64,000 nucleotides of DNA from Escherichia phage vB_EcoM_G2285. The notes under the pieces were generated by a model. It ran no database searches and was not told where the DNA came from. It saw nothing but the letters and a program-made list of their open reading frames with translations. This document shows positions 410-10,857 of the stretch, in pieces. Every line of letters starts with the position of its first letter. Positions within the stretch are counted from its first letter, which is position 1. The DNA lies in the sequence record MK327933.1. One strand, given 5' to 3'. Both the position numbers and the translations under genes were made by a program.

Positions 410-988
410 TTAATTACCACGGGCTGCATTAGCAACGGCGTAAGCGTACTGAACATTAGCGTCCTTAAACGTACCTTTAGAGGTATCTATTTCTGCCTTA
501 AAGCCGCCTTTAGCCATAACATCTGCAAATTCTTTACGGAAAGCCATTGCATCAAGACCTTTCCATGTTGATTTATGCTTGGCAAATTCAAGACCGGCGT
601 AGTTGACAGCCTTAGCTAATTTATTATCAATAACCCATTTACCTGCTTTAGGCACAAACTTCGGGCCTTTTTGTTTAGAGAACAGTTTTAAATTCCAGCG
701 ACGAAGGTCACTGTCGGCTTTAACAAAAGCTGCATCTAAGTTACTAGCAACAACATCTTCAATATGAGCAAATTTAAGTCCGTCAACTTCAATATTTAGA
801 TCGTTACGCCAGCGAAGTCCTTCCCAAGCGAAGGCTTTAAAATCAGAAGCCTTTGTAGCTAAGTACCGTTCAATAGGAGCAGTTTTAGGGTCAAAGCCGT
901 TTCCGCCACGATAAGTCCACTCGTCCTTATTAATGCCTTGAGCTTTTCCTGCAAAGGCCTCGGCGATAAATTCTTTATATGTTTTCAT
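410..988 (-). CDS. ipIII: internal protein with N-terminal capsid targeting sequence (IPIII-like, 192 aa)
   Basis: ORF track; starts MKTYKEFIAEA (T4 CTS consensus cleaved by gp21 protease); size close to T4 IPIII; SD AAGGAAAC upstream of ATG 988. Confidence 0.65.
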   Translation of the reverse strand: MKTYKEFIAEAFAGKAQGINKDEWTYRGGNGFDPKTAPIERYLATKASDFKAFAWEGLRWRNDLNIEVDGLKFAHIEDVVASNLDAAFVKADSDLRRWNLKLFSKQKGPKFVPKAGKWVIDNKLAKAVNYAGLEFAKHKSTWKGLDAMAFRKEFADVMAKGGFKAEIDTSKGTFKDANVQYAYAVANAARGN

Positions 989-1052: not shown

Positions 1053-1313
1053 TTAAGCTTTACCGCCAGAAATAATTCCGAAGTTGTTAAAATCGTATCC
1101 AATATCGTCAACATCTACTTTAGGACTTGCTACAACATAAGCAATTTCACTACGTTTTGCATAGGTGTTGATTTCTTTACCATCGCCACCTAAGAAAGAA
1201 TACCCATTACGCTTTAATGAGCCAAAGTCTTCCGCATCACCAATGAAAGCTTTAACTTTAAATTTGGGGTCTTTGACATCTGCTTCAATGATAAATTCTT
1301 GATACATTTTCAT
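1053..1313 (-). CDS. ipII: internal protein with capsid targeting sequence (IPII-like, 86 aa)
   Basis: ORF track; N-terminus MKMYQEFIIEA matches CTS pattern; ATG confirmed at 1313..1311. Confidence 0.55.
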   Translation of the reverse strand: MKMYQEFIIEADVKDPKFKVKAFIGDAEDFGSLKRNGYSFLGGDGKEINTYAKRSEIAYVVASPKVDVDDIGYDFNNFGIISGGKA

Positions 1314-1793: not shown

Positions 1794-2075
1794 CTATTTT
1801 TCTGAAGCGCCTGAAATATATTTTTCAAGACGTTGTTTCATTAGCGAGCCGTTCTTAGCGATTTCTTCCGGTTTATCGCACATACGCAACAAGGCTTCAA
1901 GCTTAGCGATATTGCTGGTACGTTCAAATTTGCGAGTATCTATCTTACTAGCAAGTTCAGAAATACGTGCTAATAGACTTTCGGCTTCAACCAAAGCTGC
2001 ACCTAGCTTAGTTGCAAATGTGTCAGTAGCTTCGTTAAGAATAGATTCTGATAAAAATTCACTATATGTTTTCAT
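1794..2075 (-). CDS. internal-protein-like protein with CTS ([10 protein letters not shown]), wedged between denV and e
   Basis: ORF track (1794..2090, TTG extension); in-frame ATG at 2075 gives N-terminus [10 protein letters not shown]; ATG overlaps stop of gene e (ATGA). Confidence 0.6.
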
Positions 2076-2560
2076 ATATACGCTTTCCAAGTTCCTGTTT
2101 TAAATGTTGAGATTACGCGTTTCGCGCGATTAGGTGTCTGACGATACCATTTAGATTGGGCTAGATTTACTGCCGCTTCATCCCAACGTTTCTGTTGAAG
2201 AATACGAAGAGAATTAGTAAAACCGGCGACGCCTGCTACACCCATTTGGAAGACCATATTGACCAATGCACATCGACGAACTGCATCTAAAGAATCGTAT
2301 ACCGGTTTAAGTTTAGCATTACCCAAGATTCCGCGAACGGCTTTATCAACGTCTTCATTAAATAGCTTTTCAGCCTCATCAAGGGTAATTGTACCGTTGC
2401 ATTTACGTCCGATCATTCTGTCAAGTTCAGCTTTAGCTACGGCTAAAGACGGGTTCTTTGTTACTAAATGGCCTATGCCAATCGTCCAAAAGCCTTCAGT
2501 GTCTTTGTATAAAGTCGGTCTAAGACCTTCGTCATTACGAAGCATTTCAAATATATTCAT
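2072..2560 (-). CDS. e: endolysin (T4 lysozyme, gene e)
   Basis: Translation [49 protein letters not shown] is clearly T4 lysozyme; ATG at 2560. Confidence 0.95.
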
Positions 2561-2594: not shown

Positions 2595-3053
2595 TTATAG
2601 GAGGGTAGTGAGCACCTTATATAATGATTTGCCCATTACATATTCCCATTGAGAAGGTTTAATTAAAGCGAATGCATCAAATTCAGGAATCTGTCGTCCG
2701 TCTGGGAATGTATGATAGGAATTACAAACACTGTTTCTGAATTGCTCGTGCTCTACAGGGATGGTATATAAGAACAGATGAATATTCTTATTGTCTGAGT
2801 AATGATGTTCACCTAGGTCTTTCAGGAAGGCAGGGTCATACTGTGTAAACCCAGTTTCTTCTTCGCATTCACGAATAGCGGCTTCAATAGGAGATTCGCC
2901 AGGTTCGACACGGCCTTTAGGAATATCCCACCGATGAGCTAATGCACCTTTAGGACGAGAACCAGTTACACGGCCCATGAATAATTCTTTATCTTCGGTA
3001 AGGAAAATAATACCGGCTGATAGTTCTTTCACTTTATTTTTCTTACTCATCAT
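2595..3053 (-). CDS. nudE: Nudix hydrolase (NudE, e.1)
   Basis: Nudix box GRVEPGESPIEAAIRECEEETGF in translation; position directly after e as in T4. Confidence 0.85.
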   Translation of the reverse strand: MMSKKNKVKELSAGIIFLTEDKELFMGRVTGSRPKGALAHRWDIPKGRVEPGESPIEAAIRECEEETGFTQYDPAFLKDLGEHHYSDNKNIHLFLYTIPVEHEQFRNSVCNSYHTFPDGRQIPEFDAFALIKPSQWEYVMGKSLYKVLTTLL

Positions 3054-3279
3054 CTCGGTTCCATGATTTGGCCATTAATTCGGACATAAATTCTTCAATG
3101 CGCGTTTCTTTAGATGGACTTTCACTATCAGATATTTGGACCATATAATCAGAAATAGGTCGGAACATATCCAAGTCGCTTTCTAAATCTTCTTTGATTT
3201 TCTCTTCTGACGTTCCTGTATCATAGGAATACAGATAAGAATCACATGATTCTGATTTAATGTAAATTGCTATACTCAT
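3043..3279 (-). CDS. hypothetical small acidic protein
   Basis: ORF track 3043..3294; likely real start ATG 3279 (MSIAIY) preceded by AGGAA. Confidence 0.45.
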   Translation of the reverse strand: MSIAIYIKSESCDSYLYSYDTGTSEEKIKEDLESDLDMFRPISDYMVQISDSESPSKETRIEEFMSELMAKSWNRDDE

Positions 3280-3512
3280 CTCAAATTCCTGCATTCGGTA
3301 ATAAAACGTTCAACTTCATTATTTTTGGCCTTTATCTTGTCTTTACGTTCCTGTAAACTACTTTTAACAAGATTAATAATGATGCCTACAGTACCTCCAC
3401 CAATTATACCGCCAATTATACTTACGATAGTAGATGCTAATAAGATAGCAATAATATCTAGTACGGCAAAGGCACTTACTTTAGTACTAAAAAAACCATA
3501 CCGATGGTACAA
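3276..3512 (-). CDS. small membrane protein with glycine-zipper TM segment and C-terminal ...ERFITECRNLR
   Basis: ORF track; hydrophobic IIGGIIGGGTVGII segment; member of the C-terminal motif family. Confidence 0.5.
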   Translation of the reverse strand: MYHRYGFFSTKVSAFAVLDIIAILLASTIVSIIGGIIGGGTVGIIINLVKSSLQERKDKIKAKNNEVERFITECRNLR

Positions 3513-3675
3513 ATATAATCCATCCTGTTATCCATTGGCACTTATTGAAAAACTTTTCAAGCTCAGCTTGAGTTGTTCGTATTACTTCATCGATAGGTTG
3601 ATATCCATTAATGTATCTGTTCACGATAATACCTGCTGGCTGGTCGATTTTAAATTCTTGGCAAATATGTTTCAC
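3487..3675 (-). CDS. hypothetical protein (62 aa)
   Basis: ORF track only; compact minus-strand gene array. Confidence 0.35.
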   Translation of the reverse strand: MKHICQEFKIDQPAGIIVNRYINGYQPIDEVIRTTQAELEKFFNKCQWITGWIIFVPSVWFF

Positions 3676-3746
3676 TAAGTATGATGGACATCCTGTCCAA
3701 TCTACTGAATAGTATGAAATACCTTCGTTGCCATCAACTATTCATA

Positions 3747-4052
3747 TTATTTTCCTCGACATTCTTTAATGAAATTTTCTAGATTGGTAGATTCAATAGC
3801 TTTTTTACGAGCTTCTGCGTGTTCTTCTTCGGTCAATTTACGTTTATAATTGACCCAGACATTATGGTCGAAACTAGTCGTGGCATATAATAACAAAGCT
3901 CCGACGAATAATAAAAACGGTGATAAGAATACAAAACCAGGAACACCATCCATATCGTAAGCCTTTTGTAATACTGCAACAGAAAGGGCTGCGTAAAAAA
4001 GTGATGCAAATATTGTTAAAAGACCAATTCGGTTGGTTTCGCCTAATTTCAT
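3747..4052 (-). CDS. small membrane protein (2 predicted TM) ending ...NLENFIKECRGK
   Basis: ORF track; SD GAGGAG before ATG 4052; hydrophobic segments; C-terminal motif family. Confidence 0.5.
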   Translation of the reverse strand: MKLGETNRIGLLTIFASLFYAALSVAVLQKAYDMDGVPGFVFLSPFLLFVGALLLYATTSFDHNVWVNYKRKLTEEEHAEARKKAIESTNLENFIKECRGK

Positions 4053-4067
4053 AATATTCTCCTCATG

Positions 4068-4112
4068 TTTAATAGGACTACTATAACATAGTCCTATAAT
4101 TGTGTAAACAGT
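4068..4112 (-). promoter_or_regulatory. PeSL-like cassette: early promoter (GTTTAC -35 / TATAGT -10) with inverted repeat ATAGGACTA..TAGTCCTAT
   Basis: Minus strand GTTTACacaattATAGGACTATGTTATAGTAGTCCTAT, followed by the 18-mer CATGAGGAGAATATTATG also found at 8533..8550. Confidence 0.6.
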
Positions 4113-4121
4113 TTTGTGAAG

Positions 4122-5078
4122 TTATTTGAAAGGTTTTACCATATGGAAATTTTGTTTGAAACGTTTGACGTAATCATCATGTCCTAAACTTTGGTACATA
4201 CTTACTACTTTGCGGTAGTTTTCCCAGGCATACTCACGAAACCAGCCAGAGGTGATGCTTGTACAGACTTTTTCTAATGCCATCATGAAACTGGCTTCAG
4301 GGTTAATTTTAAAGTCATTAGGAATTTGAGAACGTTCTAATGCTAGTACACATGATTCTTCGTATACACCGGCCAATTTGACCATTTCCGGTAATGATTC
4401 GAACTTCTCGCGTGAGGTCATGACTTCAGAACCGTCTTTCATATAAAATGTATACGCTGGACGGTCTGTTAGTGCAATGGCTTCGTGAATAGTATCATGG
4501 TCATATGTATAGATGTCATCTTTAAAGAACGCACTTTTAGAAGTGTCAAGAACCGGGTGAGCATAGTTCAAGGTTTCTTTCTGGCGTTTCAGCATAATTT
4601 CAGTAAGTTCATCGTTCAGTGTAACACCTTTACCACGAAGATACTGAATATGGTTCATAGTCTTTAAAAAGAATGGATTATTTTTCTTGAAACGATGAGA
4701 CATCTTAATTGCAAGGCACATCTCAGGAGTTGCCCAGTAAAACCCGTTCAAACGGTCTTTAGTCAAATTTTTCTTGGCGTATTTTAAAAGGTCATAAGAA
4801 GACGTGAAATCTTCAGGAGTGAGTTCACCGACTAATTCACGGACATTAGTAATTGCCGGAACAATATATGCTTCAAAATGAGTTTCGCGTCCGTTATGGA
4901 AGCATTTGAAAACTTGGACATCAGGGTTATCTTGGTGAACATATACACCCATCATTTGATTTTTGAATGCATTCCAAGAACATTGGTCCGCAATAAAGTC
5001 CCAATCGCTATTTTTGATAGCGCTAGAATCAATAAGACCGTGATAGTGAAGTGCACGAGAACCAATAACTAACATCAT
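4122..5078 (-). CDS. hypothetical protein, 318 aa, possible Pol-beta-superfamily nucleotidyltransferase fold
   Basis: Largest ORF of the hyperplastic region; N-terminus LVIGSRALHYHG...SDWDFIAD resembles the hG[GS]...[DE]h[DE]h NTase motif; not verified by search. Confidence 0.55.
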   Translation of the reverse strand: MMLVIGSRALHYHGLIDSSAIKNSDWDFIADQCSWNAFKNQMMGVYVHQDNPDVQVFKCFHNGRETHFEAYIVPAITNVRELVGELTPEDFTSSYDLLKYAKKNLTKDRLNGFYWATPEMCLAIKMSHRFKKNNPFFLKTMNHIQYLRGKGVTLNDELTEIMLKRQKETLNYAHPVLDTSKSAFFKDDIYTYDHDTIHEAIALTDRPAYTFYMKDGSEVMTSREKFESLPEMVKLAGVYEESCVLALERSQIPNDFKINPEASFMMALEKVCTSITSGWFREYAWENYRKVVSMYQSLGHDDYVKRFKQNFHMVKPFK

Positions 5079-5106
5079 AATATTTTCCTCGGATTAATTC
5101 ATTAAC

Positions 5107-5358
5107 TTAAATTTCACGACATGCGATATTATATTCATCCCAGAGGTCATCATATGAAGCCTCTACCAAAGGAACGATTGTACCGTTTATGTCTTCATTA
5201 TAAGGGCAAATTGTACAGTGCGCATCTTCGAATCGGATGCCTTTGTGTTCAGATTTTTTATAACGCATATCGAATATCTTTGCAAACTTTTCACGAGTAA
5301 TGGTTTTACTAACCAATTTGGTTCCGATACTTTCGTAATAAATCATTGTGGACTCCAT
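5107..5358 (-). CDS. hypothetical protein (83 aa)
   Basis: ORF track; preceded by PeSL-like cassette. Confidence 0.45.
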   Translation of the reverse strand: MESTMIYYESIGTKLVSKTITREKFAKIFDMRYKKSEHKGIRFEDAHCTICPYNEDINGTIVPLVEASYDDLWDEYNIACREI

Positions 5359-5363
5359 TTAAT

Positions 5364-5408
5364 TTGATAGGACTACTATAACATAGCCCTATCTTGTTGT
5401 AAACTGTT
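5364..5408 (-). promoter_or_regulatory. PeSL-like early promoter/stem-loop cassette
   Basis: gataggactactataacatagccctat followed by gtaaac (5399..5404); same architecture as 4068..4112. Confidence 0.55.
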
Positions 5409-5606
5409 TTAGCAAGAATAACTAGATGATACCCAGCCTTGAACAGTGATACTATTGTGGGATAATGAGATCGCGTCCTGGAGATTCAGACCTGCGTTAT
5501 CTTCAATCCATAATGTAACTTCTTCGCGTTCTTCTGTTGCAATTTGGAACAGGTTTTCCAGAGCAGCTACTGCCGTACGTACAGCACAATCTAATTCACG
5601 AGACAT
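5409..5606 (-). CDS. hypothetical protein (65 aa), paralog of 5616..5921 (shared C-terminal WVSSSxxC)
   Basis: ORF track; C-terminus ITVQGWVSSSYSC versus ITEGAWVSSSALC in neighbour. Confidence 0.45.
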   Translation of the reverse strand: MSRELDCAVRTAVAALENLFQIATEEREEVTLWIEDNAGLNLQDAISLSHNSITVQGWVSSSYSC

Positions 5607-5615
5607 ATTGTTTCC

Positions 5616-5921
5616 TTAGCACAACGCAGAAGACGAAACCCAAGCACCTTCAGTAATAACGTAACCATTACCTTCACGCTTAACATCGCCACCATTATTT
5701 TCAATTTCATCTTTCATCCACTGGTATACGATTTCACCCTTAGGATAATAAGTACGACCGCTACCATAATCACCTACAGAAAATGATACGGCATATTGGT
5801 CTGCGATCTTTGTTGCTTCTTCTTCGATACGTTCAGCTTGATTCAGAAGTTTATAAATTGCATCTGAAGCGGATTTGGCATCATTAAACTCTGGTACTTT
5901 AATTTCAATAATCTTACTCAT
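5616..5921 (-). CDS. hypothetical protein (101 aa)
   Basis: ORF track; ATG overlaps stop of upstream gene (AAAATGA). Confidence 0.5.
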   Translation of the reverse strand: MSKIIEIKVPEFNDAKSASDAIYKLLNQAERIEEEATKIADQYAVSFSVGDYGSGRTYYPKGEIVYQWMKDEIENNGGDVKREGNGYVITEGAWVSSSALC

Positions 5922-6277
5922 TTTCTACATTCCTTAATAAAGTTTTCGATTGTTTCATTTTCACGTCTAGCTAAGAGTTCATTATAACTAATCATTTGAG
6001 AAGCGTAAACCTTTTTATTTTTCTTGTTATGGTTTATAAAATCGTAGTAAAAATAGACTACAGTACAAAATGATGCGATGGATGCAAAGGCTTGGGTATA
6101 CCGTAAGTCCTGCCATTGGTCTGTGAATCCACCAGTGTTCCCTATAAATCCTAACACAACGCCATCAATAAGAAATCCAACTAATCCAAAGGCAAATCCC
6201 ATGCCAATACTCATAATAAAAATTAGAATGTTCTCACCAAGAGAAGGCCATATGGTTAAGAGTTGAGGCTTTTGCAT
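5918..6277 (-). CDS. small membrane protein ending ...ETIENFIKECRK
   Basis: ORF track; hydrophobic N-terminal half; SD AAGGAA upstream of ATG 6277. Confidence 0.5.
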   Translation of the reverse strand: MQKPQLLTIWPSLGENILIFIMSIGMGFAFGLVGFLIDGVVLGFIGNTGGFTDQWQDLRYTQAFASIASFCTVVYFYYDFINHNKKNKKVYASQMISYNELLARRENETIENFIKECRK

Positions 6278-6651
6278 CTTATTTCCTTAACGAATTCCAT
6301 AGCTTCTTCATATTCATACTTTTTAACAGCCTCGTCATATTGAGCTCTTGCTTTTGCACATTGAATTTTCCATTCGCGTACTCGAGCTCTATAATGACGT
6401 CCTTGGTACCAATATCCCACCCAGTTAATAGGCATTAATAAAAATGGCACAATAAACGACCCGGCTATAATAAGTAAAAACACTGCATCAGACGATATAA
6501 CTTCACTAGAATCTAAAACAGCTCCTATAATCATAAAGATTAAAAATGCTAAAGCTAAAATAGGGCCAAATAGTACTTCATTTGGGATTAATTTACGCTT
6601 GTATTCATACGCCCAGGGCTTAATTGGCATGTACAGGGTTGGCTTTGACAT
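6256..6651 (-). CDS. small membrane protein ending ...EFVKEIRCKSLNS
   Basis: ORF track 6256..6681 starts at TTG; first ATG at 6651 (MSKPTLY); hydrophobic segments. Confidence 0.45.
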   Translation of the reverse strand: MSKPTLYMPIKPWAYEYKRKLIPNEVLFGPILALAFLIFMIIGAVLDSSEVISSDAVFLLIIAGSFIVPFLLMPINWVGYWYQGRHYRARVREWKIQCAKARAQYDEAVKKYEYEEAMEFVKEIRCKSLNS

Positions 6652-7243
6652 ATTCTCTACATTCCATAATAAATTGCTCAAGGATTAAATTGTTAGTGAA
6701 ATTAGGACTAACAACCATGGTTTCATAAAGCGCATCAATAGCACTTAAAGCATCAACTCTTTTAAGCAAAGGCTTGCCTTCATACATAGTTTCAGAATCG
6801 ATGATTAACGTAAAGTAATATTTTTTATTATCGACTAGAACTTCTGTATCGATATAAAACATATTAGACCTCAGAAGCTTATCTCTAAAACCATAATAAT
6901 CTTCAGAGCGTTCGCTGATATATTCCCATTCAGTGTTTAAACAACAAACAGACCATGTAGGAGCAACGAAATCAGTGAATCTAATATCATGGTCTGCAAC
7001 TAGTTTAGCAATAGCTCCGATATCATGAATCATAATACCTGGGGCTAATAAAGATTTTCTGCTATGGCCGGCCGTTTTCTCGGTGGTCTCATAAGAAGAC
7101 GACCAGTACCATTTACGTCCAGTTGCAACATATCGTAATGAATCAACTAAAGACGTAGGTGGATTTACCTTATCTCGGAACTCTTCGAACATTGAGTCAA
7201 TATCATTATTTTGGTTTCGCATGTTAACTCCTTTATTATCCAA
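6620..7243 (-). CDS. hypothetical protein (207 aa) with ...LEQFIMECRE near C-terminus
   Basis: ORF track; SD AAGGAG before ATG 7243. Confidence 0.5.
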   Translation of the reverse strand: MDNKGVNMRNQNNDIDSMFEEFRDKVNPPTSLVDSLRYVATGRKWYWSSSYETTEKTAGHSRKSLLAPGIMIHDIGAIAKLVADHDIRFTDFVAPTWSVCCLNTEWEYISERSEDYYGFRDKLLRSNMFYIDTEVLVDNKKYYFTLIIDSETMYEGKPLLKRVDALSAIDALYETMVVSPNFTNNLILEQFIMECREYVKANPVHAN

Positions 7244-7263
7244 AAGGAGGACCGGAGTCCTCC
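7241..7263 (-). terminator. rho-independent terminator (GGAGGAC-CGGA-GTCCTCC stem plus U-run on minus strand)
   Basis: Minus strand GGAGGACTCCGGTCCTCCTTTTGG directly downstream of stop of 7272..7880. Confidence 0.55.
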
Positions 7264-7271
7264 GTATTATT

Positions 7272-7880
7272 TTATTTCAAAGAGTTAATATATTCTTGTA
7301 CATCAGCAGAAGTGGTTTCGACACCAGCTGGAGTGCCATTGAACGTTTCAACACGAGTCAGAGTGTCTTCGATATCAACCTTAGTCAGTGCAGCGATTTC
7401 AATTACATCATCGGCCGTAGAGATACCAAGGGCATTGGCTGCTCGAGTTTCACGAATGTATTCGAGTTTGATTGCTAGATTCTGACGAGCATCATCAAGT
7501 TCAACCACCTTACGAGCAATTTCAATTCGCATAGCGGCATACCCGTCAGCTTTTGTATTAAGTTGTTCGGCAGTTCGACGATACAGAAGACCAAGCTTAG
7601 CATGCATGGTAACATCTTGTCCTTCAGCCAAGAGCTTACGAATTTCACGTTCCTTAGAAGCGGCTTGCTTGTTCTTTTCATTAACAAGTTCGCGAATACG
7701 TTTTTCTTCATTAATAGATTTAACAGAAGCCGTTTTTAGTTCTTTGATTTGGGTAATCAACTTATCTGCAGCTGCGTTATACTGTTCTTCGACAGTCAGA
7801 TTTTTAGCCATAGCAGTACCCAGTTTAGTGCGGATGAATTCGACAAGTTTCTTCAGTGTGTTCATATTATTACCTTTCAA
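7272..7880 (-). CDS. coiled-coil protein (202 aa), possibly PspA/IM30-like
   Basis: ORF track; Lys/Glu/Ala-rich heptad-like sequence; PspA resemblance is an unverified impression. Confidence 0.5.
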
Positions 7881-7935: not shown

Positions 7936-8163
7936 TTATTTTTTAATCAAATTGACATAAAACTCGGCGTCTTCCGGGTGCATGCCTTCGCAGTATTCTT
8001 CAACCATGAACTTCTTAACAGCTTCATAAGGACCGCTCAGATTAAGCTCAGTTGTCCAGAACTTGGAATCTTGGACCGAATCGATACGAACTTCAGGGTG
8101 ACGGTTGCGAATAACTTCTTCTGTGTATTCATAATCAACGACATCAATACTAACTTTAGCCAT
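7936..8163 (-). CDS. hypothetical protein (75 aa)
   Basis: ORF track; SD GAGAGGAAAA before ATG 8163. Confidence 0.45.
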   Translation of the reverse strand: MAKVSIDVVDYEYTEEVIRNRHPEVRIDSVQDSKFWTTELNLSGPYEAVKKFMVEEYCEGMHPEDAEFYVNLIKK

Positions 8164-8183
8164 TTTATTTTCCTCTCATTTGA

Positions 8184-10223: not shown

Positions 10224-10499
10224 TTATTTCAAATATATTGCGTATTTTTTATAGCCACCAGGCTCGTGTCGAAGACCTTTATCATTCGCAAAACGTTGAA
10301 TGTTATTGAACTGATTTTCATCAAGTTCGGATGTGTCAAATATGAAAAAGTTTCGTTTGTTACCAAGCGTGATATGCGGAGTTAAGTCAATGTTATACAA
10401 ATTAAGAATATCAGCAATAACCTGTTTGGCCGCTTTGTTAATTTTCACACCAGACGATTCTGAGATGAATTCGTTGAAAGTTTTCATTTTAGGTTCCAT
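10224..10499 (-). CDS. internal-protein-like protein with CTS (MKTFNEFISE)
   Basis: ORF track; CTS motif begins at second ATG (10487); hyperplastic position next to 57B. Confidence 0.55.
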   Translation of the reverse strand: MEPKMKTFNEFISESSGVKINKAAKQVIADILNLYNIDLTPHITLGNKRNFFIFDTSELDENQFNNIQRFANDKGLRHEPGGYKKYAIYLK

Positions 10500-10507
10500 T
10501 TGGTTGT

Positions 10508-10550
10508 TTTGATAGGACTACTATAACATAGTCCTATCATGTTGTAAACT
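10508..10550 (-). promoter_or_regulatory. PeSL-like early promoter/stem-loop cassette
   Basis: gataggactactataacatagtcctat plus gtaaac at 10544..10549, overlapping stop of upstream gene. Confidence 0.55.
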
Positions 10551-10857
10551 ATTTTATTCCGCGTGATGCAATTGTGTTCTGTCGTTTAACACCAGTTTGT
10601 TTAAAGTCATGATTGTCGATTTGATCGGTACGAGCAACTCCGAATGATGATTTGATTTTAGCTTTAGATCCTTTAGTTATAGAAATAAACATCTCGGAAG
10701 CCCCTTTCTTAAAGTCCGAAGCGATTACTTCAACACCGTTCTTAGCAAGTGACTTCAGAATTGCATCCGCAAACTCATCGTCAAGACCTACCTGAGTATA
10801 AATAATAAATGTCTTTGGTGCAGCAGCTTCATTGATAAATTCTTTAAATGTTTTCAT
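10549..10857 (-). CDS. internal-protein-like protein with CTS (MKTFKEFINEA)
   Basis: ORF track; ATG 10857; N-terminal CTS motif. Confidence 0.6.
   Translation of the reverse strand: MKTFKEFINEAAAPKTFIIYTQVGLDDEFADAILKSLAKNGVEVIASDFKKGASEMFISITKGSKAKIKSSFGVARTDQIDNHDFKQTGVKRQNTIASRGIK

Follow-up and report, generated by a model that had tools for sequence, protein, structure and literature searches.

Genes with a common C-terminal motif between e.6 and nudE

The 64,000-nucleotide stretch of Escherichia phage vB_EcoM_G2285 analysed here (sequence record MK327933.1; the whole stretch is called the window) contains, between its homologues of e.6 and nudE, five genes whose products carry a common peptide, F-[IV]-x-x-C-R or a close variant, at or near the C-terminus. 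Positions 3000-7400 of the window are 96% identical to Escherichia phage RB69 (Mosigvirus), gene names were assigned via RB69 and T4 annotation and PHROG matches, and every gene here lies on the minus strand. A preliminary description of this DNA had reported five near-identical peptide endings, and all five are present on the minus strand, in the following genes, given as open reading frames (ORFs) with lengths in amino acids (aa) and with predicted transmembrane (TM) segments.

7272-7865, minus strand: e.6 homologue, 197 aa, a predicted long helical hairpin; directly upstream of the first motif gene
6620-7222, minus strand: e.5 homologue, 200 aa, phrog_2607 (E = 5.7e-95), 99% identical to RB69 e.5; motif L-E-Q-F-I-M-E-C-R at 6656-6682, 11 codons before the stop codon; product ending in LEQFIMECREYVKANPVHAN
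6256-6651, minus strand: e.4 homologue, 131 aa, phrog_2604 (E = 1.7e-61 from the MSKPTLY methionine), two TM segments; variant motif A-M-E-F-V-K-E-I-R, with Ile for Cys, at 6277-6303; product ending in AMEFVKEIRCKSLNS
5918-6277, minus strand: e.3 homologue, 119-aa membrane protein, phrog_2330 (E = 1.4e-49); motif I-E-N-F-I-K-E-C-R at 5924-5950, then K and the stop codon; product ending in IENFIKECRK
3747-4052, minus strand: ORF133c homologue, 101 aa, phrog_9798 (E = 8e-67) and phrog_2203 (E = 0.0012); motif L-E-N-F-I-K-E-C-R at 3756-3782, then G-K and the stop codon; product ending in LENFIKECRGK
3276-3675, minus strand: broken e.2, in two ORFs (3487-3675 and 3276-3512) that each match phrog_2203; motif V-E-R-F-I-T-E-C-R at 3288-3314, then N-L-R and the stop codon; ORF 3276-3512 ending in VERFITECRNLR

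The consensus is hydrophobic(-3)-x-x-[F/W](0)-[I/V](+1)-x-x-C(+4)-R(+5), usually with basic residues next. In the six-frame translation of the 64 kb, the pattern E.FI.ECR occurs four times, every time in these minus-strand genes (3288-6679), in frame, 1-11 codons ahead of the stop codon and inside 3.4 kb. For the looser pattern E.F[IV].ECR, 200 block shuffles gave a mean of 0.005 expected matches against four extended copies observed, and chance is therefore no explanation. A repeat finder, run independently, returned a 22-nt direct repeat, D3, at 3284-3305, 5920-5941 and 6652-6673, with 77-91% identity.

The carriers had been described as small membrane proteins, which holds for e.2, ORF133c, e.3 and e.4 and fails for e.5, in which a crude hydropathy scan found no TM-like hydrophobic segment and which is therefore probably soluble. 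The orientation of e.4 is N-in/C-in by the positive-inside rule (hydropathy and charge), and ORF133c, a paralogue of the C-terminal half of e.2, consists of two TM segments and a 46-aa basic/acidic tail. The ORF at 3276-3512 (78 aa), previously taken for a small membrane protein of its own, is instead the C-terminal fragment of the broken e.2. Relative to RB69, a 709-bp deletion in the window takes out ORF132c together with the first 11 e.2 codons, and the alignment to RB69 shows an extra T near 3495 (T7, not T6), a +1 frameshift that breaks the e.2 frame; the two resulting ORFs match phrog_2203 profile positions 33-97 and 93-166. Among the 30 best-matching phage records listed, no case of the deletion appeared. 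Mini-ORFs of 63-81 aa from the C-terminal part of e.2 are also predicted in further Mosigvirus sequences (P0008, P0009, P0010, P0012), and the TM-plus-tail piece of e.2 may therefore be expressed alone.

Full-length PHROG matches were obtained for e.3, e.4, e.5 and ORF133c (E = 1e-49 to 6e-95), which are thus ordinary family members. PHROG lists 2203 as 'membrane protein' and 9798, 2330, 2604 and 2607 as 'unknown function', each catalogued separately, and among the listed matches no name or description ties the five families via a common tail. Pfam, NCBIfam and PDB sequence searches returned nothing for e.2-e.6 or ORF132c.

ORF135c, whose tail reads YNIACREI (LWDEYNIACREI before the stop codon) and includes A-C-R, was considered as a sixth copy and rejected on its spacing; hhalign ruled it out as a member of the small soluble tagged family. 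Its counterpart in Q7622 ends in YCYEI. The label 'sulfurtransferase' that several GenBank phage records attach to e.4 was likewise rejected, e.4 having two TM segments by hydropathy and no Pfam or NCBIfam match; the label, found for example at 5445-5840 of L022 (Escherichia phage vB_Eco_F27), looks like a propagated mis-annotation.

Distribution of the motif in T4-type phages

Roughly 55 copies of the motif were found in 19 T4-type phages from about 17 genera. Carriers belong to Tequatro-, Mosig-, Gapriver-, Dhaka-, Kanagawa-, Marfa-, Winkler-, Teguna-, Jiaoda-, Moon-, Karam-, Biquarta-, Ishiguro-, Braga- and Pseudotevenvirus, and Providencia phage PSTCR6 is also a carrier. There are three to five copies per phage in the Tevenvirinae genera examined and one or two, some of them degenerate, in Aeromonas phages 31 and 65, Bragavirus, Pseudotevenvirus and Providencia phage PSTCR6. 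In laboratory T4, e.2 is truncated and lacks the motif, and other Tequatroviruses have a full-length e.2 ending in NNFITECRKLK. Identity between T4 and the window is 47% for e.5, 53% for e.4 and 35% for e.3. A literature search found no description of the C-terminal motif and nothing relevant on the e.x genes or on phage-encoded PspA.

Selection acts on the peptide

Thirty-eight motif copies from genes of the 19 phages were aligned by codon. The conserved residues are written with varying codons: Phe as TTT (23) or TTC (13), Cys as TGT (20) or TGC (11), and Arg as AGA (15), CGT (8), CGA (5), AGG (4) or CGC (4), the last set involving changes at two codon positions. At the four conserved residues, third codon positions hold 0.4-0.8 bit of information vs 1.0-2.0 bit at positions 1 and 2. 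The motif is also intact where the next ATG is about 20-37 nt away or lies past the stop codon, as in the e.5-type genes of SP18, QL01, Q7622, PEi20 and Virsaitis27 and in Vir_109. RNA folding at the five window junctions gave no structure more stable than shuffles (z -1.4 to +1.6), no Rfam family matches the motif blocks, and no minus-strand promoter-like or terminator-like site overlaps any of the five blocks. The free codon choice, the weak third positions and the lack of an RNA or promoter feature together place the conservation at the peptide level. Selection acts on the amino acids, not on the nucleotides, and the motif is a portable peptide tag, a conclusion in which we have very high confidence.

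The preliminary description had left two readings side by side, a functional C-terminal peptide motif and a junction spread by recombination, and had proposed comparing third-codon variation with nucleotide identity. The third positions vary, which indicates protein selection. The first reading is borne out by residues kept through synonymous and two-base codon changes across about 17 genera. Recombinational spread of a junction falls away as the cause of the conservation, since the copies differ in nucleotide sequence and the motif persists far from an ATG; the tag may nevertheless have reached unrelated scaffolds by transfer of 3' ends.

Overlap with the ribosome-binding site of the next gene

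The overlap of the motif with the next ribosome-binding site, also proposed earlier, is real, and it forms a second coding layer that is confined to two variable motif positions and is secondary. Of the 20 copies in which the Arg codon is followed by the next ATG at a distance of at most 5 nt, 17 have codons +2/+3 made up of purines (AAGGA, AAAGGA or GAGGA), encoding K-E, K-G or E-E; with the ATG farther off, such a run is found in 1 of 16 copies (Fisher's exact test, 4e-6, uncorrected for shared ancestry), and +2/+3 there are T-E, Q-M, D-Q, K-H, T-Y and others. Lys or Asn often follows the Arg because AAATGA or AATG holds the next start codon. By sequence these would be translationally coupled junctions, in which the downstream start overlaps or abuts the stop codon and the Shine-Dalgarno sequence lies inside the upstream ORF.

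In the window, ATGA overlaps join e.3 to the next gene and e.2 to ORF130c, the e.3 ATG lies within e.4, and the e.4 ATG lies within e.5, the 3' end of which overlaps the start of e.4. An AAGGAA-type Shine-Dalgarno sequence had been described for the motif in general; it is present in e.3 and e.4 only, and the corresponding sequences are ATGGAA in e.5, AGGAA in e.2 and GAGGA in ORF133c. The AAGGAA of the e.4 K-E codons is the Shine-Dalgarno sequence of e.3, whose ATG (6275-6277) overlaps the Arg codon, and that of the e.3 motif lies 9 nt ahead of the ATGA-overlapped start of the next gene (5919-5921). The e.4 ATG (6649-6651) begins 5 nt past the Arg codon of the e.5 motif. In e.2 and ORF133c the Shine-Dalgarno sequence is made of the Arg codon and the codon after it rather than the K-E position: the Arg-Asn codons of the e.2 remnant supply AGGAA, 7 nt ahead of the point (3277-3279) where the ORF130c homologue starts in an ATGA overlap, and the Arg-Gly codons of ORF133c supply GAGGA for the ATG at 3743-3745, the start codon of ORF132c in RB69 and of no more than a 3-codon remnant in the window. 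Judged from its sequence, the block is dual-coding, with four positions fixed for the protein and two variable codons (+2 and +3) that serve as Shine-Dalgarno sequence when the next ATG abuts.

A tag on unrelated scaffolds, and plain paralogy

The membrane families, namely e2, e3, e4, e3K and the ORF133c group, align with each other over TM segments plus tail, motif included (hhalign, 52-95%). The pair e2 and ORF133c group scored 95% with the motif and 68% (E = 5e-5) without it, e3 and e4 scored 88.9% and 21%, respectively, and the remaining membrane pairs were lower without the motif. The alignment of e.3 and e.4 is collinear and takes in the N-terminal M-[SQ]-K-P-x-L, both TM segments and the tail. 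From these alignments, the membrane proteins e.2, the ORF133c group, e.3, e.4 and their counterparts are plausibly old paralogues. Two further families are tagged. The e.5-type proteins are encoded by the gene after e.6, are 154-315 aa long and are only loosely related between genera; the other family, absent from this window, comprises soluble proteins of 92-113 aa. Both match the other families over 9-12 motif residues only, and without the motif every hhalign pair involving either of them is at or below 6%. The tag is therefore carried by at least three otherwise unrelated scaffolds. The earlier suggestion of one paralogous family of small membrane proteins thus stands for e.2, ORF133c, e.3 and e.4, which are related, and does not extend to the e.5-type and 92-113-aa soluble families, which share the motif alone.

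A phmmer search with e.5 against 1.84 billion representatives recovered only e.5 of the Mosigvirus and T4 types and, as a weak match, a protein of 1,644 aa (E = 1.4e-4), and gave no functional lead. Word-indexed protein searches returned near-identical sequences or fragments only, a 37-sequence tail profile used in such a search recovered truncated e.2 and ORF133c fragments only, and an IMG/VR scan with e.4 gave 6 loci.

These results also bear on plain paralogy, under which the genes would have arisen by tandem duplication of a single gene for a small membrane protein and their common ending would be an ancestral remnant without a role of its own. The collinearity of e.3 and e.4 from M-[SQ]-K-P-x-L through two TM segments into the tail, the 52-95% range within the membrane families (68% for e2 and the ORF133c group even minus the motif) and the match of ORF133c to the e.2 PHROG profile all agree with it. 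It does not account for the e.5-type and 92-113-aa soluble families, which lack a TM segment and, apart from the motif, show no detectable similarity to the membrane proteins or to one another, nor for motif residues fixed over about 17 genera while the remainder diverges to 25-50% identity or past detection, and the phmmer search with e.5 brought up nothing beyond the e.5 types and the one weak match. We consider paralogy as the whole explanation distinctly unlikely.

The neighbouring gene e.6

In nearly all cases the gene directly upstream of the first tagged gene is e.6, and of the 18 e.6-bearing phages examined, 17 have a motif gene next to e.6, so that e.6 is a candidate partner of the tag. 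In the syntenic region, Aeromonas phage Aes508 has neither e.6 nor the motif gene present at this place in phage 31. The e.6 proteins of T4 and the window share 88% identity, against 35-53% for the tagged proteins.

An AlphaFold2 (AF2) model of e.6 had a mean predicted local distance difference test score (pLDDT) of 76.8, with a core above 90, and predicted hairpin helices at 2-81 and 87-162. The two best Foldseek matches of this model in the PDB were Vipp1 (E = 2.5e-3 and 3.5e-3), and the e.6 profile gave collinear, non-significant Vipp1 matches in the PDB (E = 0.14-0.6). A Pfam scan of e.6 found no PspA_IM30 match at E up to 0.1, and hhalign of e.6 against a sequence taken to be that of E. 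coli PspA gave a probability of 0.8%. The depositor's HHsearch note on the e.6 homologue of Citrobacter phage NM4.3 reads 'shock protein', and some GenBank records label e.6 'host specificity protein'. PspA-type proteins are typically recruited by small membrane partners, for example PspB/PspC or LiaI (PMC7619361). On this mixed evidence, a PspA/Vipp1-like nature of e.6 is a lead.

Taken further, this lead would make the block from e.6 to e.2 a membrane-remodelling or membrane-protection module, in which e.6 would be a divergent PspA/Vipp1-like polymer belonging to the ESCRT-III superfamily and the F-[IV]-x-x-C-R tails of changing, rapidly evolving membrane and soluble adaptors (e.2, ORF133c, e.3, e.4, e.5 and others) would, as docking helices, recruit or regulate it at the host inner membrane; we regard this elaboration as improbable. 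A strong G+C-rich hairpin followed by TTTT (GGAGGACTCCGGTCCTCC) is present at 7246-7263, between e.6 and e.5 and directly before the e.5 ribosome-binding site; it is possibly a terminator or attenuator that separates e.6 from the tagged genes.

Proposed function of the tag

In the membrane carriers, K/R-rich segments follow the last TM segment, and by the positive-inside rule the tails are therefore predicted to be cytoplasmic. In four of the five window copies the hydrophobic moment is larger for a helix than for a beta-strand, and in e.5 the two are about equal (0.81 vs 0.80). An AF2 model of e.5 from a four-sequence alignment placed the motif within a helix (179-194), at low confidence (pLDDT 36.8). 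Given their -3, 0, +1 and +4 spacing, the conserved hydrophobic residues would share one face of a helix.

Our best explanation, held with moderate confidence, is that a selected peptide tag on five early genes forms an amphipathic docking or assembly helix, with e.6 as candidate partner. The motif would be the end of a probably helical, cytoplasmic tail, and residues -3, 0, +1 and +4 would provide its hydrophobic seam. Such a helix could draw the fast-diverging membrane and soluble proteins to a common partner, or to each other, at the cytoplasmic face of the inner membrane, and the leading candidate for the partner would be the better conserved helical-hairpin protein e.6. The separate parts are held less firmly: a docking or assembly function is tentative, the case for it falling just short of balance, and e.6 as the partner is unlikely, though no other candidate leads it.

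Several points count against this explanation. The tag is not uniform: copies in Bragavirus and in the Providencia phage read Y-I-x-x-K-R, and the e.4 lineage has I, S, V or M in the place of Cys in an otherwise unaltered motif. In Aeromonas phage AP1, e.6 is present and the 7.6 kb examined contain no motif gene. The 19 surveyed phages were hand-chosen, and the Fisher's exact test that relates the Shine-Dalgarno run to the distance of the ATG (4e-6) ignores shared ancestry. The cytoplasmic topology is a prediction from the positive-inside rule only, and the helical state is suggested by the model of pLDDT 37 and the hydrophobic-moment calculation. Finally, the membrane families may merely be paralogues that keep an ancestral end.

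A different role for the motif would be cysteine chemistry, with Cys-Arg as a reactive site (for a metal bound between subunits, a redox switch, a mixed disulfide with thioredoxin or glutaredoxin of the phage, or covalent modification) that the helix only presents. Cys occupies +4 in 31 of the 38 aligned copies, always with Arg or Lys next, several tagged proteins per phage could bring several thiols to one site, and a second family in the same cluster ends in a C-terminal Cys. Yet I, V, M, S or K stands at +4 in the whole e.4 lineage and in some other copies with the motif otherwise intact; these substitutions are easier to reconcile with a small hydrophobic residue on a helix face than with an indispensable nucleophile or ligand, and those of the e.4 lineage argue for a packing role at +4 and not for obligatory thiol chemistry. 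A second ligand residue is, moreover, absent, Pfam and NCBIfam gave no match to any known family of metal or redox motifs, and we find this alternative improbable.

The docking-helix explanation has also to be set against a turnover or translation signal: the tail might act as a C-terminal degron towards a host protease (ClpXP, FtsH or Lon) or, while nascent, stall the terminating ribosome and aid re-initiation on the overlapping gene downstream. C-terminal tails that are basic and hydrophobic, that of MuA for example, serve as ClpX signals, the motif is mostly 0-4 residues from the C-terminus with basic residues after it, and stop and start codons overlap in most copies. In e.5-type proteins, however, the motif lies 5-30 residues from the C-terminus and so misfits a terminal degron or a termination-pause peptide, and no similarity to known arrest peptides was seen; such a signal is very improbable. 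F-I-K-E was also considered as a site for the gp21 protease (I-x-E) and rejected, as Glu at +3 is not conserved.

Least credible of all is a DNA-level junction element (A/U-rich stretch, Shine-Dalgarno sequence, spacer and ATG) copied between cassettes by recombination with the peptide incidental: the window copies do form the 77-91% identical repeat D3, in 20 of 36 copies an ATG falls no more than 5 nt from the Arg codon (17 of them with the Shine-Dalgarno-like run in the motif), ATGA stop-start overlaps are common, and this phage group shuffles cassettes via repeated junction sequences called PeSLs (PMC4122927), but what is invariant is Phe, Ile/Val, Cys and Arg and not the purine run, Arg alternates between the AGR and CGN codon boxes with third positions poorly kept, the motif is whole with the ATG 22-37 nt downstream or after the stop codon, the blocks have no same-strand promoter, hairpin or significant RNA fold, and the true PeSL-like repeats of the region lie elsewhere (4068-4115 and 5363-5410).

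Comparison with known systems

A shared terminal docking peptide is a known kind of feature, and the tag would be a new case of it in an uncharacterised gene block of a model phage. The internal proteins IPI, IPII and IPIII of T4 carry an N-terminal capsid-targeting sequence (CTS; M-K-T-Y-Q-E-F-I-A-E...) as an address tag. The CTS resembles the present motif in being a terminal peptide of about 10 residues on unrelated, fast-diversifying cassette genes of T-even phages, with an E-F-I-like core in both. It differs in being N-terminal, cleaved by the prohead protease after (L/I)-x-E, and directed to the capsid. The motif described here is C-terminal and defined by Cys-Arg, other genera have G, Q, M, Y, H or N in place of its +3 Glu, and its carriers, unlike those of the CTS, are mostly inner-membrane proteins. 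By analogy, the CTS may be considered the nearest conceptual relative of the tag. Internal-protein-like ORFs with T4 CTS-type N-termini occur on both sides of the studied region, all on the minus strand:

410-988, minus strand: internal-protein-like ORF
1053-1313, minus strand: internal-protein-like ORF
1794-2090, minus strand: internal-protein-like ORF
10224-10499, minus strand: internal-protein-like ORF
10549-10857, minus strand: internal-protein-like ORF

T4 gp43, gp33 and gp55 have a common C-terminal clamp-binding peptide that docks on the hub gp45. The likeness lies in a short C-terminal peptide that unrelated phage proteins use for one hub; sequence, hub, compartment and function differ from those of the tag, and the comparison is one of principle only. 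PspA with PspB/PspC, and LiaI-LiaH, likewise combine a helical-hairpin gene with neighbouring small inner-membrane proteins whose cytoplasmic tails recruit the hairpin protein (PMC7619361), and the C-terminal MIM helices of ESCRT-III proteins bear a looser likeness to the tag.

PeSL cassettes, which consist of an intergenic promoter and a stem-loop, occur in the hyperplastic regions of T4-type phages and have been proposed to mediate modular shuffling (Arbiol et al. 2010, PMC2839356; Comeau et al. 2014, PMC4122927); the early promoter consensus of the T4/PST group is TTTACW-N17-TAYWAT (PMC4122927). As short repeats at gene boundaries in variable T4-type regions, they are the counterpart of the junction first considered for the motif. 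The F-I-x-x-C-R block has none of the PeSL features: it is coding, is without promoter or stem-loop, and varies at synonymous sites. A PeSL-like intergenic repeat of 48 nt does exist in the region, at 4068-4115 and 5363-5410 (85% identical), bracketing the ORF135c-ORF134c pair; it is a minus-strand early-type promoter (TTTACA-17-TATAGT) overlapping the palindrome ATAGGACTA...TAGTCCTAT.

Other genes and elements of the region

The remaining genes between e.3 and nudE, and nudE itself, are as follows.

5616-5921, minus strand: in-frame fusion of RB69 ORF139c and ORF138c
5409-5606, minus strand: ORF136c
5107-5358, minus strand: ORF135c
4122-5078, minus strand: ORF134c (DUF7277 and DUF7275)
3043-3279, minus strand: ORF130c homologue
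2595-3053, minus strand: nudE

The N-terminal part of the fusion corresponds to RB69 ORF139c and the C-terminal part to ORF138c, ending in GAWVSSSALC; RB69 ORF137c is not present in the window. The 101-aa fused form is shared by L004 and F27, and the split in RB69 may therefore be derived or mis-sequenced.

A second family with a C-terminal motif consists of tandem small ORFs (65-120 aa, two to six per phage) ending in W-[VIL]-S-S-S-x-x-C and the stop codon, with the variant endings WYPSSC, WQPSSC, WYSSSMQNC and WMESNC. Members were located in the window and in eight further loci:

Window: 5409-5606 and 5616-5921, both minus strand
L009: 4658-5926
L010: 4970-6574
L011: 5034-6073
L012: 1464-3034
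L014: 6087-7701
L015: 7200-7941
L016: 7372-7961
L018: 3960-4514

These ORFs are found upstream of the ORF134c homologue, either next to it or a few genes away, and the link is kept in Aeromonas phages Aes508 and 31 without an F-I-x-x-C-R gene beside ORF134c. Their S-x-x-C-COOH end resembles the ends of peptides that form aminovinyl-cysteine, and the S-x-x-C ORFs and ORF134c are possibly a substrate/enzyme pair. The ORF134c homologue (318 aa) matches Pfam DUF7277 (E = 1e-27) and DUF7275 (E = 7e-79) and has homologues in 733 phage records, including phages of Acinetobacter, Pseudomonas, Vibrio, Gordonia and Streptomyces. At the N-terminus of ORF134c, VIGSRAL...DWDF resembles the GS/DxD signature of the nucleotidyltransferase fold, and some records are annotated 'putative nucleotidyltransferase'.

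A 17-nt translation-initiation repeat, CGAGGAAAATAATATGA and variants, occurs on the minus strand at four gene starts:

3742-3758, minus strand: start of the ORF132c remnant
4049-4065, minus strand: start of ORF133c
5075-5091, minus strand: start of ORF134c
8160-8176, minus strand: start of frd.3

Implications

We rate the finding as of moderate interest, rising to high if the tag is indeed linked to e.6 and e.6 has a PspA-like function. The block is a clean example of dual coding, in which a motif fixed for the protein has free positions that serve the ribosome-binding site of an overlapping gene. A tag on at least five products of the block, kept over about 17 genera amid near-unrecognisable divergence, means that these genes would act via one common contact, and in T4, the best-studied phage, a set of 'hypothetical proteins' would thereby become a testable system.

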